Assembly: GCA_050261115.1 (NCBI GenBank)
Contig: JBLNCY010000066.1
Location: forward strand, 1 to 28,759
Origin: Methanocella sp.
GTDB taxonomy: Archaea > Thermoproteota > Bathyarchaeia > Bathyarchaeales > Bathycorpusculaceae
Reading direction: 5' to 3'
DNA: 28,759 nt
How positions within the stretch are numbered: the stretch's first letter is position 1; the number at the start of each line of letters is the position of its first letter. Shown piece after piece: positions 113 to 28,759 of this stretch. The notes under the pieces are model-generated. The model was given only the letters and a program-made list of their open reading frames with translations, searched no databases and was not told the origin of the DNA. The position numbers were made by a program, and so were the translations under genes.

Positions 113-2098
113 TTGCCTAAGGAACAACCAGACTCTAGAGACGCCCAAGCTTTAGGCTCCCTGGACACCGAGTTTGAAGCGTGGACACAAGAGCCAGAGG
201 CCCAATCAGGCGCTAAAGAGGCTAAAGTAGCAGTAGCTAAGCCTAAGAAAACCAAAAAGCCACTGCCTAAAGGGGAAGAGAAAAGCTACCGCTACGAATA
301 CGAAGACCTCATCGGGGGTAAGAGAACCAAACAAAGCTACACCTGCACCTATTCTGATCCTCACAACATAGTTGAACTCATCCAGAAAAACAGGTTTCAG
401 CCCTTCCAAGCCTTCAAGCTTAATCTAGAAGCGCTAAGGCTTAAGCAGACCGCAAAAATTGACCGCTTAATCGCCGTCGACGCCATCCGCACTAAGCTTG
501 TGCCCTACAACTTCCAGCTAAAAACAGCGCTTCAAGTCATCAACGAAATGAATGCTAATGCAATATTGGCGGATGAGGTGGGGTTGGGTAAAACCATCGA
601 GGCAGGCCTTATCATGAAGGAGCTTCTGCTTCGAGAAGAAATTAACTCTATTCTGATAGTTGCACCCAAAAGCCTGCTGTCTCAATGGAAAAGCGAAATG
701 CAGGAAAAATTCGGCGAAACCTTCCTCATCGCCAACAAACCCGGCGAACGTGCGAACTTTAAAACAGGCAACCGCATCCTCTGCTCACATACGCTTTTGC
801 CGCGAAAGTTCGAGCAGATCGCTAAGCGTACTTGGGATCTTGTGGTGGTAGATGAGGCACATGCCTTCCGAAACACCCACAGCAAAGGCCGGAACTGCCT
901 TTCCGAACTGCGGAAAAACCATCTTTTACTCCTCACAGCCACACCCCTATGTAACAAACTCACTGACCTCTATAGTTTAGTGGATTTGATTCAGCCAGGG
1001 ATGCTTGATAGTGAACGCGCCTTCATATCCCGATTTGCTGAGGATCACCGGAGCCGCGTTATCCGAGAGAGTGAAGCGTATGCTTTGCGGCAGAGACTTC
1101 GAGACGTTATGTGCCGGACAAGACGCGAACAGACAGGTATCCCCTTCACTAAACGCATCGTGGAGTCTAGGACTCTGGAACCCACAGTGGAGGAGCGACA
1201 ATTCATCGACGCCGCCACCGAGTACCTCCGAGACGTCAGCAAAAACAGCTTTAAAACCATCGAAGCCCTCATCGCCGAGAACCCCAACCGAAAATTCACC
1301 GAGGCCCAAAGTAACGCCATACTTGTCTTCCAAGCAATCACTTTACAGCAATCCTTCTCTAGCTCTCCAGCGGCTTCAATTCAGTCACTGCTTAAACGTC
1401 AACAGCGGTTCCCTACAGAAGCCCAAGCCACAAGCAAACTAATAGAGATGGCAAGCAAAGTCAAAAGCGCCAAGATGGAGCTTCTACGCAGCATCCTCAA
1501 AGAGACCCCCGGAGAGCAAGCATTAATTTTCTGTCTGCGAAAAGTCACTGCATACCAGATTAAGCAGATGCTAGACGGGGAGTTTGGTAAGGCTGCAGTT
1601 TTCCTTGGCGACATGGATCAAACCGAGCGGGATGAAACTATAGCAGCGTTTAGGAGCGGCGAAGTCAAGTACCTAGTGGCTACGGATGCAGCCGCGGAAG
1701 GTCTAAACCTGCAGAACTGTTGCCTCATGTTCAACTATGACTTACACTGGAACCCCATGAAGATTGAGCAACGCATCGGCCGCATCCATCGCTTCAAACA
1801 GGACCGAGACGTAACCATATTCAATTTAGCCGTCAAAGACACCATCGACGACTACGTCTTGCATGTGCTTTACCAAAAAATTGACCTCTTTACCATGACC
1901 ATCGGTAAAATGGAGACCGTTCTAGCTGAACTAAAAGACGGAAACCAAGACATCCAGAAAACCATCGCTGAAATCCTCCTGCGTAGCGGCAGCCGCATTG
2001 ACCTGCAGAGAGAACTTGAGAAACTTGCAAGCGACCTTAAAGTGGCAAAGCAGAACCAAGAGTTAGCCGAGCAGTTTACAAGGGGGGTGCTGGATTGA
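113..2098 (+). CDS. SNF2-family helicase/ATPase (RapA/YqhH-like)
   Basis: Motif I ILADEVGLGKT, motif II VVVDEAH, motif III LLLTATP, motif V TDAAAEGLNLQ, NYDLHWNP and motif VI EQRIGRIHR. TTG start, with TATA-like TTTTATAT about 30 nt upstream. Confidence 0.95.
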   Translation: MPKEQPDSRDAQALGSLDTEFEAWTQEPEAQSGAKEAKVAVAKPKKTKKPLPKGEEKSYRYEYEDLIGGKRTKQSYTCTYSDPHNIVELIQKNRFQPFQAFKLNLEALRLKQTAKIDRLIAVDAIRTKLVPYNFQLKTALQVINEMNANAILADEVGLGKTIEAGLIMKELLLREEINSILIVAPKSLLSQWKSEMQEKFGETFLIANKPGERANFKTGNRILCSHTLLPRKFEQIAKRTWDLVVVDEAHAFRNTHSKGRNCLSELRKNHLLLLTATPLCNKLTDLYSLVDLIQPGMLDSERAFISRFAEDHRSRVIRESEAYALRQRLRDVMCRTRREQTGIPFTKRIVESRTLEPTVEERQFIDAATEYLRDVSKNSFKTIEALIAENPNRKFTEAQSNAILVFQAITLQQSFSSSPAASIQSLLKRQQRFPTEAQATSKLIEMASKVKSAKMELLRSILKETPGEQALIFCLRKVTAYQIKQMLDGEFGKAAVFLGDMDQTERDETIAAFRSGEVKYLVATDAAAEGLNLQNCCLMFNYDLHWNPMKIEQRIGRIHRFKQDRDVTIFNLAVKDTIDDYVLHVLYQKIDLFTMTIGKMETVLAELKDGNQDIQKTIAEILLRSGSRIDLQRELEKLASDLKVAKQNQELAEQFTRGVLD

Positions 2099-3456
2099 GC
2101 GAAGAAGCAGGGAGCGAAATTCGAGGATTCATACGAGCCTACATTCAATCCAAACAGGGTAGTATCAAGGGGGATGAAGAGCAAATTTTCACAGTAACTT
2201 ACCCCGAGGAGGAGTCTCCCTGCGAGTACACCTACAACCCTGCCATTGCAAGAGAGAAGGGTATTGCGTTACTTACTGCGGGCAGCCCAGCTTTCCAACA
2301 TATCCTAAAAGCCTGCCTAGAAAATGGTGCACTAAGCCAAGTCCAAGTTAAACCCAAAGAAAACACCGAAACCCTCATCAAAAAATACTACCGAGACACA
2401 GCCAGCGAATGCCCAAACTGCCACATAACAAGCATCGACCAAGAATCAGTTTTCATCTGCACTAAACAAGATGCCTGCCACCACACAATAAACAACGGCA
2501 AAATTACCAGCATAGACATCGGCAAATCCGAACCCCAAAAGTACTTTTTGTTTTACTATGCAGCGACGTTTTCGAGCAAGCTCCGGCCCAAAAACGAGGA
2601 GCTTATAGCGATATTGCTCGATGAAGACGGCCACCTCATTGAAGGCTTTGATGAAGAGAACCTCTTAGGTAACGAGACACTGGAGCTTACCGATGTTAAG
2701 AGCAAGCTAAAACCGGGGTTATTTGAGAAGCTAAAGGCAGCTGCAGACAAAAAGCTAACGGCTACCCTTCAGGAATTAGTAAAGCTTTATGATTTGCCGC
2801 TTGCTAAGGAGAAGCGAGCCAAAATCAGAAGTTTTGAGCGGCGGCTACGCAGGGAACGCCGAGAACAAGTCATCTCCAAAAAGCATGATTTTGACTATGT
2901 AAACTGGCAACAAAACTATGAGGCGCTACTGCAGCGCGAGGAGGAGTCCTGCACTACTTGCGTCTCGGCGCGGTTCACCAACCTCTTAGTGGTTAACACG
3001 GCTAAAGTCAAGTTCCAAATAAACTTAGACAACAAAGCAGCCATTCCCGGGAGCCTCATCATGGGCATAACCAAGCCGCTTGAGGCAGTTTGCCCCATTT
3101 GCCACGGCGTCTTCACAGAGGGTTATGCAACTCAAGACGGCCAATACGTTTGCCCAAACTGCACACGCCAATCCATAGATACCGGCAAAATCTACTCGAA
3201 AAAATCCAACCTTTCGCTTGACGAGAAACTAAACGAGTACATCGAACGCGAGGGCGGGTTCGTCTGCAGTGTATGCGGCAAAAAATATAGCAAACTCCTC
3301 GAAGTCAAATGCAGCCACGACAACTCCAGCGTCTGCCTCTACCATTACGGGACATGCGACGTATGCGGCAAGGCCTTTAGCAAGCTCAACCTCACCTACA
3401 CAGACGAGTTTAAACGCAAACTGTGCCCCAAGCACGCAAAATCCAAGGAGGCCTAA
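2095..3456 (+). CDS. YqhG-like protein with multiple C-terminal Cys/His zinc fingers
   Basis: 4-nt TTGA overlap with the helicase stop. Many CxxC/CxxH pairs (CPNC, CPIC, CPNC, CSVC, CSH, CLYH, CDVC, CPKH) and a central charged helix. The YqhG resemblance is inferred from layout and gene context. Confidence 0.7.
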   Translation: MSEEAGSEIRGFIRAYIQSKQGSIKGDEEQIFTVTYPEEESPCEYTYNPAIAREKGIALLTAGSPAFQHILKACLENGALSQVQVKPKENTETLIKKYYRDTASECPNCHITSIDQESVFICTKQDACHHTINNGKITSIDIGKSEPQKYFLFYYAATFSSKLRPKNEELIAILLDEDGHLIEGFDEENLLGNETLELTDVKSKLKPGLFEKLKAAADKKLTATLQELVKLYDLPLAKEKRAKIRSFERRLRRERREQVISKKHDFDYVNWQQNYEALLQREEESCTTCVSARFTNLLVVNTAKVKFQINLDNKAAIPGSLIMGITKPLEAVCPICHGVFTEGYATQDGQYVCPNCTRQSIDTGKIYSKKSNLSLDEKLNEYIEREGGFVCSVCGKKYSKLLEVKCSHDNSSVCLYHYGTCDVCGKAFSKLNLTYTDEFKRKLCPKHAKSKEA

Positions 3457-3458
3457 AC

Positions 3459-4382
3459 ATGCGCTGCAACCACTATAATGGCGTTTTTAGGGAGATTTGT
3501 GAGCAGTACCCTGACATTGACTTGCCAGGGTATCTGTGTGATAATTTGCAGTTGCCACTGGATAAGGCGGAGATGCTTGCAGAAAGAATTGAAAGGCAGC
3601 TCCAAAAAACAGCAGTAAACAAGAAACCCCGCAGCCTAAGCCTTATAGAGAAAGGCACCGCCGAAGAGGCGCCAGCTAAGAAGCTAAACTATTGGGTGGA
3701 TCGCCTTGCTCCTAGAGAGTTTGAGTACTTCCTCAAATGGCTCCTGTCTGATTTAGGGTTTGAAGCGAAGTCAGAGATGTTTGCAGCCACCCCATGGGGC
3801 ATCGAGGTAGTAGCCACAAAAGACGCCCAGAAAATTGCTATCCAAGCAATAAGGTGCCCAACAACCCATCGAGTCACCCAAACCGCCATAGAACTCACGC
3901 AGGAAACTAGAGGCGACTGCCCCCAAGCCCTTGTAATCACGACCGCCTACTTTACTCAAGCAGCAAAAGAAGCGGCTGAACGGGCAGGCATCGAACTCTG
4001 GGATATAGAAGCACTCAACCAAAAAATCACGCAAGCAAAGGAAAAAGTTGACTTAGAGGAACAGGCAAGTTTTCCCGAATTCCAAGGTTCACTGCTACAG
4101 AGTCTTCATGCTTTGGGTAAATCCAAGATTTTCCTCATCGAAGCCAAAGCAGACGGCAAATATGATTTGCATTTGCCAGGCGTAAAATATCCGCTTCTGA
4201 CTTTTCAAGCCCAAAACGGTATCGTAACCCGCTGTGTCCTGCGCATAAAATACAACGAACCGGTCACAGAAGAGCAGGGCGAAGTAATAATCGGCTATGA
4301 CGAAAACAATCAGCCTGTAGGTCCCTCTGACGAGGAAGCATACAGGTTAGTTACGCAGTATCTTGAGCAGTTCCTCGAATAG
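3459..4382 (+). CDS. Mrr-like restriction endonuclease-fold protein, probably catalytically degenerate
   Basis: LAPREFE..LL..LGF, GIEVVA..IAIQAIR and ALVITTAYFT.AAKEAA...GIELWD follow the Mrr_cat pattern. ATG at 3459 follows AAGGAGG and lies 2 nt after the upstream stop. Confidence 0.85.
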   Translation: MRCNHYNGVFREICEQYPDIDLPGYLCDNLQLPLDKAEMLAERIERQLQKTAVNKKPRSLSLIEKGTAEEAPAKKLNYWVDRLAPREFEYFLKWLLSDLGFEAKSEMFAATPWGIEVVATKDAQKIAIQAIRCPTTHRVTQTAIELTQETRGDCPQALVITTAYFTQAAKEAAERAGIELWDIEALNQKITQAKEKVDLEEQASFPEFQGSLLQSLHALGKSKIFLIEAKADGKYDLHLPGVKYPLLTFQAQNGIVTRCVLRIKYNEPVTEEQGEVIIGYDENNQPVGPSDEEAYRLVTQYLEQFLE

Positions 4383-5469: not shown

Positions 5470-6015
5470 CTAGGGTTTGCCTGCTTCTTCTGCACTTTTC
5501 CTATAGAGTGCTTTGTCGATAACTCGTGCGTCCAAGTTATGCTTCTTGGCGGATTTACGTAAGGCAGCAAGCAGGCGAATATAGTTCTGGGCAGTATAGA
5601 GCCCCGGCGGCGGGTTGCCAAGCAGTCCCTTCCAGACGCTTGGTTCAAAGGTGCCATAGTTTTTTGGGTCAAAAAAGGTCAATATTACGCTGGCTAATAT
5701 GGGGCTTATGCCTTCTAAGATTATGAGGCAGTTGATGCGGTATGTGTCGTCGGCGTTTGGGAGGCTGAGGCTTTGGCTGGTGATTCGTTGAACTTTTTCG
5801 TCGTCGTTTCGGGCTACTAATTCTTGGGTGCGTTGGAGCTTGTCGGCTTCGTTTTTGTATTTCCACTCAACCACAGCGGCGAGGTCTTTTGTGGTTAAGA
5901 CTTTGTTTTTTCGGAATTTGGCGCCGAGTTCCCGTTCGCGTTGGGCTTGCCAACCATAGGCTTTGTCGTATTTGCGGCTCCACATAAGGTATTCTTGCTT
6001 GTCCAATGCACTCAC
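5470..6015 (-). CDS. Hypothetical protein with HhH / DNA-glycosylase-like features
   Basis: L..VVEWK and LEGISPILASVILTFFDP.NYG resemble a helix-hairpin-helix region. The start may be TTG at 6006. Confidence 0.6.
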   Translation of the reverse strand: MSALDKQEYLMWSRKYDKAYGWQAQRERELGAKFRKNKVLTTKDLAAVVEWKYKNEADKLQRTQELVARNDDEKVQRITSQSLSLPNADDTYRINCLIILEGISPILASVILTFFDPKNYGTFEPSVWKGLLGNPPPGLYTAQNYIRLLAALRKSAKKHNLDARVIDKALYRKSAEEAGKP

Positions 6016-26934: not shown

Positions 26935-28326
26935 GTGAATTACTTGTTCAAGAAAACAAAGATCATCTGTACCGTTGGACCCGCAAGCCTCCAAAAAGAC
27001 ATCATCAGAAGAATGTATCAGCTGGGCATGAACGGAGCCCGAATCAACACCGCATATGGCGGCATCTCACAATACCTATCCACAATCGAAACTGTACGAG
27101 AGGTCGCTGAAATCCCAATTATCCTTGACCTCAAAGGCCCCGAAGTCAGACTACGCGCCACACAACCAAAAAACATCAACCCCAACGACGTGTTTGACGT
27201 GGGTTTCAAAACTGGCGACATATGCTTTAATCACAACTTCTACGACCAGATGGACATCGGAGACATAATCCTCATCGACAACGGCAAACTCCGAACCAAA
27301 ATCATAGAGAAAAGCAACCAAAAACTAAGCCTACAAGCCCTAACAGGAGGCAAAATAGAGGACGGCAAAGGCGTCAACATCCCAAACAAGCATCTCCCCC
27401 TCTCAACCCTCTCCAAAAAAGACATAGAACTAATAGAGCTCGCAAAAAAACACGACATCGAATACATCGCACTCTCGTACACTAGGTGCGCTGCTGATGT
27501 GGAAGAGCTCTCTGTGGGTAAAAACTTCCAAGGCGGCATAATCGCTAAAATCGAAAACAACGAAGGCGTCAAAAATTCCGCTGAAATCCTAGAAGCCGCC
27601 AACGGAATTATGGTTGCCCGCGGCGACCTAGGCATCGAGATCGAACCCGAAAAAGTTCCGCTGGTCCAGAAATCACTCATAAAACAGTGCAACCAACGCG
27701 GCAAGCTGGTGATAACTGCTACTGAGATGTTGGAGTCGATGATTTCTCAGCCAAGCCCAACCCGTGCTGAGGTTAGCGATGTTGCTAATGCGATTCTTGA
27801 TGGGTCCGATGCTATTATGCTTTCAGGAGAAACAGCTGTGGGCAAATATCCTGTTGAAGCTGTTGATATGATGGCGCGGATTGCACATGAGACTGAATCG
27901 GCGGTTAAGAGCAAGGTTGAAGCCACGCACTTCATCAATATCTCTGACACAGTAAGTAAGGCAATTCAGGAAATTTGCCAAAGCATGCCCCTTAGCAAAG
28001 TCGTTGCCTTAACGCGGACTGGCTACACGGCTCGTATGATTGCCCGCTTCAAGCTGACTCAGCCCATCTATGTGGTTACTCCTGATTTGGAGGTGAAGAA
28101 GCAGCTTGAGTTGGTGTTTGGCGTCAAACCGATCTTTATCGATTATCTTGGGGAGAAGGATATGGTTGCTGCTGTTGCTCGGCGGCTGTGTGAGCTTGGG
28201 GTGATTGATTCTAAGGAGACGGTTCTCTTTACGGCTGGCAAGCGCACTAATGTAAAGCATGCTAGTAACACTATTGAGATTCACAAGATTGATGAGCTTC
28301 TGAGCTTTTCTTCCCCTCATCCTTAG
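26935..28326 (+). CDS. pyk: Pyruvate kinase
   Basis: KTKIICTVGPAS, LDLKGPEVR, IIAKIE, IMVARGDLGIE, ATEMLESM, PTRAEVSDVANAILDG and MLSGETA. Confidence 0.98.
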   Translation: MNYLFKKTKIICTVGPASLQKDIIRRMYQLGMNGARINTAYGGISQYLSTIETVREVAEIPIILDLKGPEVRLRATQPKNINPNDVFDVGFKTGDICFNHNFYDQMDIGDIILIDNGKLRTKIIEKSNQKLSLQALTGGKIEDGKGVNIPNKHLPLSTLSKKDIELIELAKKHDIEYIALSYTRCAADVEELSVGKNFQGGIIAKIENNEGVKNSAEILEAANGIMVARGDLGIEIEPEKVPLVQKSLIKQCNQRGKLVITATEMLESMISQPSPTRAEVSDVANAILDGSDAIMLSGETAVGKYPVEAVDMMARIAHETESAVKSKVEATHFINISDTVSKAIQEICQSMPLSKVVALTRTGYTARMIARFKLTQPIYVVTPDLEVKKQLELVFGVKPIFIDYLGEKDMVAAVARRLCELGVIDSKETVLFTAGKRTNVKHASNTIEIHKIDELLSFSSPHP

Positions 28327-28455: not shown

Positions 28456-28759
28456 ATGACAATGAAAAGAAAAACCGGAAGACCACCCAAAATCCCCGGC
28501 CAACAACAGACAACCGAAAAAATATTCGAAGCAGCAATCGACCTCTTCGCACAAAAAGGCTACAGCAACATCTCAATACGCGACATAGCCAAAACAGTAG
28601 GCATCAAAGAAAGCTCCATCTACAAACACTACAAAAGCAAAGAAGAAATCCTCCAAAAAATCATCCAATACCCCCTAGCAAAAATGTACACCATATCAAC
28701 CCGCCCAGAAACCACTGAACAACTCATCGCAACAAGAGGCGTCGACGGATTCTTAGCCG
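28456..28759 (+). CDS. TetR/AcrR-family transcriptional regulator (truncated by window end)
   Basis: Manual translation [66 protein letters not shown]. Confidence 0.95.

Follow-up and report, generated by a model that had tools for sequence, protein, structure and literature searches.

The window analysed here is a complete contig of 28,759 bases (C66) from a Bathyarchaeia genome bin (G000; 2.15 Mb in 66 contigs), near whose start three genes lie on the forward strand: gene 1, encoding an SNF2 ATPase (113-2098; open reading frame (ORF) of 661 aa), gene 2, encoding a zinc-binding protein (2095-3456; 453-aa ORF), and gene 3, encoding an Mrr-fold protein (3459-4382; 307 aa counted from ATG, with a GTG at 3423 as an alternative upstream start). 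This trio looks like a three-piece form of a known kind of motor enzyme, not a new defence system. Its architecture is quite probably that of a RapA/HepA-type core and rear module split between two chains, joined by a zinc-ribbon array and by a third, apparently nuclease-dead, Mrr-fold subunit. That the separate chains make up one RapA/HepA-type SNF2 DNA translocase machine, acting as an accessory factor in genome maintenance, is given an even chance, and a role in removing stalled RNA polymerase or other roadblocks, read by analogy from the RapA-like architecture, is put at even or slightly below.

Correspondence of genes 1 and 2 to RapA

Gene 1 matches the Pfam families SNF2-rel_dom (7e-36) and Helicase_C (1.4e-27), and helicase motifs I, II (DEAH), III, and VI appear intact when its translation is read by eye, in agreement with a first-pass annotation of this DNA that had described the SNF2 motifs as intact. 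Profile alignment of the gene 1 family with Escherichia coli RapA using hhalign places residues 78-599 on RapA 106-638 (Prob 99.9, E 2.8e-32, 501 columns). The NCBIfam RapA model NF003426 aligns colinearly and in a single stretch (gene 1 95-613 on model positions 120-643 of 959; E 3.2e-53), with a score of 181.2 bits that lies below the cut-off of 576, so that on this sequence measure gene 1 is not a RapA equivalog. Residues 1-77 are poorly conserved, of low complexity, and unaligned to RapA, and at the level of sequence no counterpart of the RapA N-terminal domain (1-107) was detected in gene 1, the alignment starting at RapA 106. Judged from these alignments, gene 1 is a bare SNF2 ATPase core, homologous to and colinear with that of RapA.

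For the protein encoded by gene 2, no Pfam family passes its curated cut-off, and zinc-ribbon families appear only below threshold, including a weak TFIIB-ribbon-like match. An AlphaFold2 model built from a 45-sequence alignment (predicted local distance difference test (pLDDT) 86.6, predicted template modelling score (pTM) 0.66) shows an N-terminal alpha+beta domain followed by a Cys4 site (C106, C109, C122, and C128) and a beta-sheet interrupted by a coiled-coil insert, whose two helices (207-260 and 268-285) are very long. In this model the fold of the N-module (residues 1-305; 2095-3009, forward strand) corresponds to RapA 707-968, the Spacer and C-terminal domain region. What follows the SNF2 core in RapA has been described in comparison with BrxHII (available part of PMC12839542), and the layout described there for RapA and BrxHII is, as modelled, the layout of gene 2. 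A zinc-ribbon array occupies residues 326-453 (3070-3456, forward strand), comprising a CxxC...CxxC site (C333/C336/C353/C356) and a cross-braced FYVE/LIM/PHD-like double finger at about 385-453, and this array is the best conserved part of gene 2 inside the genus. Gene 2 also exists in a longer form of 571-578 aa (L025:6980-8710, L029:6929-8662, P0121, and P0123), in which further Cys-rich repeats are present along with a small conserved C-terminal domain, absent from the window's protein.

Taken in order, the two chains tile RapA: gene 1 lies on residues 106-638 and ends 62 residues past its RapA-aligned part, while gene 2 begins at RapA 707, so that together they cover RapA 106-968 with a break at about residue 700. 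Weighing against this assignment, the sequence-level comparison of the gene 2 family with RapA is not significant (hhalign Prob 1.5), leaving the second half of the correspondence without support from sequence. A search of gene 2 against Protein Data Bank (PDB) sequences yielded zinc-finger noise only.

The junctions between the genes are tight. At the first (2082-2098, forward strand), a G-rich Shine-Dalgarno-like run (2082-2087) is followed by TTGA, in which the TTG start of gene 2 (2095-2097) shares bases with the TGA stop of gene 1 (2096-2098), a layout that suggests translational coupling of genes 1 and 2. At the second (3445-3461, forward strand), AAGGAGG (3445-3451) precedes the gene 2 TAA stop (3454-3456), a 2-nt gap, and the gene 3 ATG at 3459. 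The three co-oriented genes with a 4-nt overlap and a 2-nt gap noted at first pass are thus confirmed by coordinates and junction sequences. In RNA data, where DNA carry-over is possible, one contig (X16; record 15, 1992-2133) spans the gene 1/gene 2 junction, and metatranscriptome contigs from four runs place short pieces (91-330 nt, depth 2-8) on all three genes, with the gene 2/gene 3 junction uncovered by any contig of the four runs. A promoter and terminator scan of the locus, using a bacterial promoter model, returned hits at chance level.

An Mrr-fold third protein with a degenerate motif

Gene 3 matches Pfam Mrr_cat (3e-13) and, weakly, NA-iREase1 ('inactive restriction endonuclease'; 0.0017), and its domain belongs to the Mrr-type PD-(D/E)xK fold. 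The model of the protein (pLDDT 87.3, pTM 0.52) has three parts, including a three-helix N-terminal unit. The catalytic motif of Mrr enzymes is D ... (Q/E)xK, and in an alignment of 25 family members the corresponding positions are not kept: position 116 is D in 16 sequences, E in four, and another residue in five; position 129 is L in 12, Q in 11, and otherwise occupied in two; and position 131 is R in 11 and hydrophobic in 14. The sole universal residue of this site is the basic one at position 132, and the full canonical D...QxK is present in none of the 25. The window's own protein carries E116, Q129, I131, and R132. The Mrr-fold label applied at first pass is therefore right as to fold, and is refined here by the degenerate catalytic motif. 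Since the motif positions are not conserved, the Mrr domain has probably lost nuclease chemistry and may serve as a non-catalytic DNA-binding or sensing domain; a protein with an unorthodox active site is still conceivable.

Inside the genus, the C-terminal domain of gene 3 is more strongly conserved than its Mrr domain (59% versus 43% identity). In PADLOC, gene 3 matches PDC-S02 and the Mrr end of ZorD, and together with its bacterial relatives it aligns to the C-terminal Mrr region of the ZorD model PDLC00631 (about 926-1064 of 1071) at 1.3e-7 to 1.8e-8. No PDB sequence was matched at E<=1, and RapA was absent among the 50 matches listed for gene 3, although a relation between the two is still conceivable.

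Inheritance of the trio in archaea and bacteria

The distribution of the trio was surveyed in a class sample of 201 genomes, including G000, and in a genus sample of 60 other genomes. In the class sample, relatives of gene 2 occur in G000 and in nine of the 11 other genomes of the same genus, in none of the 16 genomes from other genera of the same family, and elsewhere only as two short, weak matches to the zinc region (E 3.4e-5 and 9.1e-4). In the genus sample, genes 1, 2, and 3 are present in the same 33 of 60 genomes, and in all 33 they lie on one contig, adjacent and tightly spaced in the order SNF2-zinc protein-Mrr, despite varied flanks. Close SNF2 homologues are absent from every genus genome without gene 2; in two further genomes, the SNF2 proteins are all distant (34% identity, ORFs of 1057-1119 aa). 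Among high-quality genomes of the genus, 25 of 38 carry the trio, G000 counted. The window's downstream neighbours, a creatininase gene and a 181-aa hypothetical protein, recur in three of the 17 genus loci fetched with flanks, and in all three of the separately found close loci; such variation downstream indicates that the conserved block consists of exactly the three genes. A comparison with the trio-less genomes G246 and G187 as possible empty sites revealed no synteny around the creatininase gene and was uninformative.

The same organization extends to bacteria. An exhaustive HMMER search with gene 2 gave 48 representatives (50% clustering) at E<=0.001, many of them fragments. Distant full-length relatives are Cys-rich proteins of 660-709 aa (P0149, P0159, and P0163), and bacterial-branch proteins of this size share the tail of the longer gene 2 form, after about 40 invariant Cys. 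Two relatives are fusions in which the gene 2 N-module and an Mrr domain like that of gene 3 share one chain, namely P0151 (675 aa, Mrr_cat at 451-566) and P0157 (weak Mrr_cat match), to which the gene 3 family aligns in hhalign at 444-571 (Prob 96.5, E 9.8e-10) and 421-570 (Prob 72, E 3.3e-5), respectively. In a search for fused forms, none of 7999 candidates proved to be a longer relative of gene 2 at E<=0.001, though this counts as weak evidence. Scanning metagenomes with the Cys-rich group yielded 12 loci, six of which were inspected. In all four that reach upstream (L007-L010), the gene directly upstream of the gene 2 relative (20-22% identity) encodes an SNF2 protein with 41-45% identity to that of gene 1, and a Mrr_cat protein follows directly downstream of the relative in L007, L009, L010, and L012, the last being a contig without upstream sequence. 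The remaining locus, L014, proved to be an unrelated Cys-rich match without SNF2 and was set aside.

The bacterial flanks differ from one another and are of housekeeping type, including a sporulation 'Germane' domain protein, an amidase, QueH, ValRS, and AraC; one cluster member bears the label Clostridiaceae. Clostridia-like metagenome contigs carry the three genes in this order too, so that the trio is not specifically archaeal, contrary to the scope first given to it. Horizontal transfer, in either direction, is the most likely reason why the Bathyarchaeia genus and Firmicutes-like bacteria have the cassette in common. The co-occurrence elsewhere that the first-pass annotation had proposed as a check was thus found both within the genus and on bacterial contigs. 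It would be a very improbable coincidence for three unrelated genes to have become neighbours by chance, given the identical order and spacing in every carrier despite varied flanks, the same order on distant bacterial contigs, and the existence of gene 2-gene 3 fusions. The trio is almost certainly a real co-inherited unit whose three genes work together.

Genomic context and alternative functions

The context of the trio bears on whether it serves defence. An undescribed anti-virus or anti-plasmid system of the BrxHII/BR-helicase/ZorD type, split into three chains, is the main rival and is considered somewhat unlikely; in such a system, the zinc-ribbon and Mrr-fold proteins would act as sensors that load the SNF2 motor on foreign DNA, and the motor would then block replication or recruit a nuclease encoded elsewhere. 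Gene 1 indeed matches DrmD (1.9e-71) and BrxHI/II (9.4e-61), and also HmaA, in PADLOC, gene 3 resembles the Mrr region of ZorD, and the series of domains parallels that of a BREX-related 'BR' helicase (available part of PMC12839542). All NCBIfam defence equivalogs, however, lie far under their cut-offs: gene 1 scores 240.5 bits against 950 and 238.8 against 610 for DrmD models, and 207.8 against 500 for DpdE, and the ZorD equivalog reaches 75.4 bits against 1500. The statement at first pass that the locus matches no named system is borne out by these PADLOC and NCBIfam comparisons, with the qualification that the locus is not far from a known protein, as the tiling of RapA 106-968 by genes 1 and 2 indicates.

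Flanking proteins were scanned with Pfam (93 from 17 genus loci, 24 around this locus, and 19 from bacterial loci) and with PADLOC (12 neighbouring proteins in this genome). The flanks are mostly metabolic and informational housekeeping genes and do not form defence islands; no methyltransferase, PglZ, BrxC/DUF499, ZorABC, or DrmABC partner of a restriction-modification, BREX, BR, Zorya, or DISARM system was present in those scanned, which turned up only a small-molecule-type methyltransferase (L025) and cas4. The absence of a methyltransferase from the window, claimed at first pass, likewise held for DNA methyltransferases in the 22 scanned ORFs out of 32 of at least 100 aa (of the nine left unscanned, eight lie inside longer ORFs or overlap them, and the ninth is an end fragment open at its 3' side). 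The lack of partners and islands speaks against defence, as do the lack of a conserved nuclease motif in the gene 3 family and the absence of relatives on viral contigs, searched with gene 2 or with the bacterial-branch alignment as query.

Evolutionary rates and distribution can be read in both directions. Across 18 archaeal copies, pairwise identity averages 74% in SNF2, 57% in gene 2, and 48% in gene 3, and the faster evolution of genes 2 and 3 favours a defence role. So do the scatter of a small family across domains of life and the carriers with at least one gene split or containing internal stops, which number eight of 33 (G209, G217, G220, G231, G236, G237, G248, and G254) and may include assembly errors. 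Against it, the SNF2 protein is more conserved within the genus (68-84% identity) than the housekeeping enzyme pyruvate kinase (63-79%). The patchy distribution itself was considered as a signature of defence and rejected: pyruvate kinase (query: window 26935-28323), taken as a control, was found in only 29 of the same 60 genomes (21 of 38 high-quality ones, including G000), which points to gene content in the genus being generally variable, so that patchiness is not evidence for defence. Several genomes have two or three pyruvate kinase matches. The low count of carriers reflects either an unusually variable gene content or copies that the first-look filter overlooked.

At each end (1-121 and 28639-28759) the window shares 121 bases with another contig of the bin, namely C16 and C14 (reverse strand), from which it follows that C66, C16, and C14 are probably contiguous in the genome, the assembly having been broken at graph branches. 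Because the window's first 121 bases overlap the end of C16, the upstream context of the trio is found on that contig. A two-repeat CRISPR mini-array (C16:367-480; 39-nt repeat, spacing 75) ends about 360 nt before gene 1, its repeat also being present in arrays at C9:8862-10150 (17 copies found) and C16:30215-31131 (13 copies), and is accompanied by an N-terminally truncated cas4 fragment of 143 aa (C16:636-1064; PF01930 6.5e-8, profile 53-158 of 160; PADLOC Cas4 2.7e-18). The two look like a decayed CRISPR remnant, and their position beside the trio counts in favour of defence in this genome. Some caution is called for here: SNF2 and Mrr genes beside a CRISPR remnant resemble a defence locus and score against DrmD, BrxH, and ZorD models, yet no defining feature of those systems was found.

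A DNA-damage-specific remodeller that does not act via RNA polymerase is a distinctly unlikely alternative, in which the Mrr-fold and zinc-finger subunits would recognise lesions or branched DNA and the motor would expose them to repair enzymes. Repair-related neighbours do occur, each in one of the 17 genus loci, where chance may account for them: UvrB-UvrA-UvrC (L033:73-4959), an RNase H-like protein with an MrfA-type helicase containing the MZB zinc domain (L025:10883-14478), a Hel308-like helicase (L032:3356-5629), and a DNA alkylation repair protein (L027:13015-13686). Moreover, the link between the trio and YqhH/YqhG is weak, and the evidence fits the clearing of lesion-stalled RNA polymerase equally well. 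From the role options of the first-pass annotation, defence, repair, or displacement of RNA polymerase or chromatin, remodelling or RNA polymerase displacement is favoured, and defence and repair less so.

Further neighbours were recorded as observations in their own right. A paralogue of transcription factor B (TFB; TFIIB) lies at most two genes from the trio in four of the 17 genus loci (L025:1795-2763, L028:10582-11589, L029:4944-5906, and L031:11442-12413), directly after gene 3 in two; these genomes have about three to six TFB genes each, and the four loci may share ancestry, possibly as a single event. The three TFB genes of G000 are on contigs other than that of the trio. In one genus genome, some 1 kb separates the trio from contractile-injection-system genes (Pvc16_N 3.5e-32; T4 gp19-like tail tube 1.1e-41; L030:4006-5044), and in another locus a tyrosine integrase (L023:11372-12241) is found 1.2 kb downstream of the trio. 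Within the window, the 181-aa protein (5470-6015, reverse strand) has no Pfam match, is conserved (67-80% identity), and adjoins the creatininase gene in all six loci having the window's downstream context. Near-identical DNA (0.94-0.97 of sampled words) is present in digester, sludge, compost, biofilm, and soil metagenomes from eight studies (P1-P8; runs X1-X13), and the population carrying the window DNA appears widespread in engineered anaerobic systems.

Proposed mode of action and implications

RapA-type motors clear RNA polymerase left on DNA after termination or stalling, as established in E. coli. In a corresponding machine built from the trio, the gene 1 product would be the ATPase core, the gene 2 product would supply in trans the Spacer and C-terminal domain region that RapA carries in cis and would add a zinc-ribbon array, and the gene 3 product would form a third subunit whose Mrr-fold domain binds or senses DNA. 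Fuelled by ATP, such a complex might drive itself along duplex DNA and displace RNA polymerase that has stalled, or other firmly bound proteins, with the zinc ribbons and the gene 3 product standing in as targeting parts for the absent RapA N-terminal domain. The trio would thereby serve genome maintenance as an accessory factor, rather than restriction-type defence. In a bolder and rather doubtful version of this proposal, the trio would be the archaeal counterpart of RapA, built of three subunits and clearing DNA of RNA polymerase that has stalled or lingers after termination; its zinc ribbons and Mrr-fold subunit would dock on DNA or on the polymerase of the archaeon, and the cassette would have been exchanged between Firmicutes-like bacteria and Bathyarchaeia. 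No description of a dedicated RNA-polymerase-recycling ATPase of this type in archaea was found in the literature searched.

If genes 1 and 2 represent RapA cut in two, orphan partner proteins would gain a testable role as a polymerase-contacting rear module, and, with the chains separate, what the Spacer and C-terminal domain contribute could be examined in trans. The apparently nuclease-dead Mrr-fold subunit implies that a restriction-enzyme fold may be reused as the targeting part of a motor, and its presence as a third subunit marks a sub-branch common to one archaeal genus and bacteria.

Comparison with known systems

The domain series of BrxHII and the BR helicases, an SNF2 core, an inactive restriction endonuclease-like domain, a RapA-like C-terminal alpha+beta domain, and in type 1 BR a further C-terminal restriction endonuclease, resembles that of the trio; the extra endonuclease of type 1 BR is described as active, in contrast to the degenerate motif of gene 3 (available part of PMC12839542). 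In addition, BrxHII/BR is a single chain with an N-terminal Tudor domain, and the trio consists of separate chains; the BrxC/DUF499 ATPase and methyltransferase partners of BrxHII/BR are lacking from the trio flanks examined. ZorD of type I Zorya combines SNF2 and Mrr-fold domains as the trio does, but in one chain that needs ZorABC, and no ZorA, ZorB, or ZorC was detected by PADLOC among the 12 neighbouring proteins of this genome. ZorD is also an active nuclease.

The Bacillus YqhH-YqhG pair is likewise a short SNF2 gene tightly coupled to a partner of unknown function, an arrangement that the trio displays in its 4-nt overlap, in 33 of 33 carriers, and in L007-L010; the Bacillus pair is not known to have a zinc-ribbon array or an Mrr-fold third gene. 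YqhG differs from gene 2 in that its family, PF11079 (gathering score 25 bits), has no match to gene 2 at E<=0.1 and none in the whole genome at E<=1. Below the cut-off, PF11079 aligns colinearly at 12.6-14 bits to the N-terminal 30 residues of five of 14 bacterial-branch relatives, all in one sub-family, and weakly to one of nine proteins in another set of relatives. The nearest named Atlas cluster to gene 2 has PF11079 on 44% of its members (score 0.78), which serves as a lead only, and comparison of P0163 residues 1-335 with shorter proteins in search of a YqhG link returned only two fragments of P0163's own family. The 'YqhG-like' label of the first-pass annotation is thus weakly supported, the sub-threshold matches lying in relatives and none in gene 2 itself. 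The available part of PMC7385302 describes the pair as poorly characterised and groups Bacillus subtilis YqhH, named HepA and also rapA, with RNA-polymerase-interacting translocases, and a yqhH deletion in Bacillus thuringiensis is reported to be UV-sensitive (available part of PMC10054049). Among the literature matches listed, no description of YqhG as a RapA rear module was found.

RapA itself, from the bacterium E. coli, is a single chain, whereas the trio of this archaeal host divides the equivalent region into two chains at about RapA residue 700. RapA lacks the roughly 130 zinc-ribbon residues of gene 2 and any counterpart of the Mrr-fold third subunit; conversely, its residues 1-107, the polymerase-binding and autoinhibitory N-terminal domain (available parts of PMC8501970 and PMC8666675), have no counterpart detected in the trio. 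The Spacer, in which residue D744 lies, contacts the zinc-binding domain of the RNA polymerase beta' subunit (available part of PMC8501970) and wedges in the opened polymerase cleft of a post-termination complex (available part of bioRxiv 10.1101/2024.09.28.614012). Across these differences, the ATPase core of RapA is homologous to and colinear with gene 1, and its Spacer and C-terminal domain adopt a fold that the model also assigns to the N-module of gene 2.

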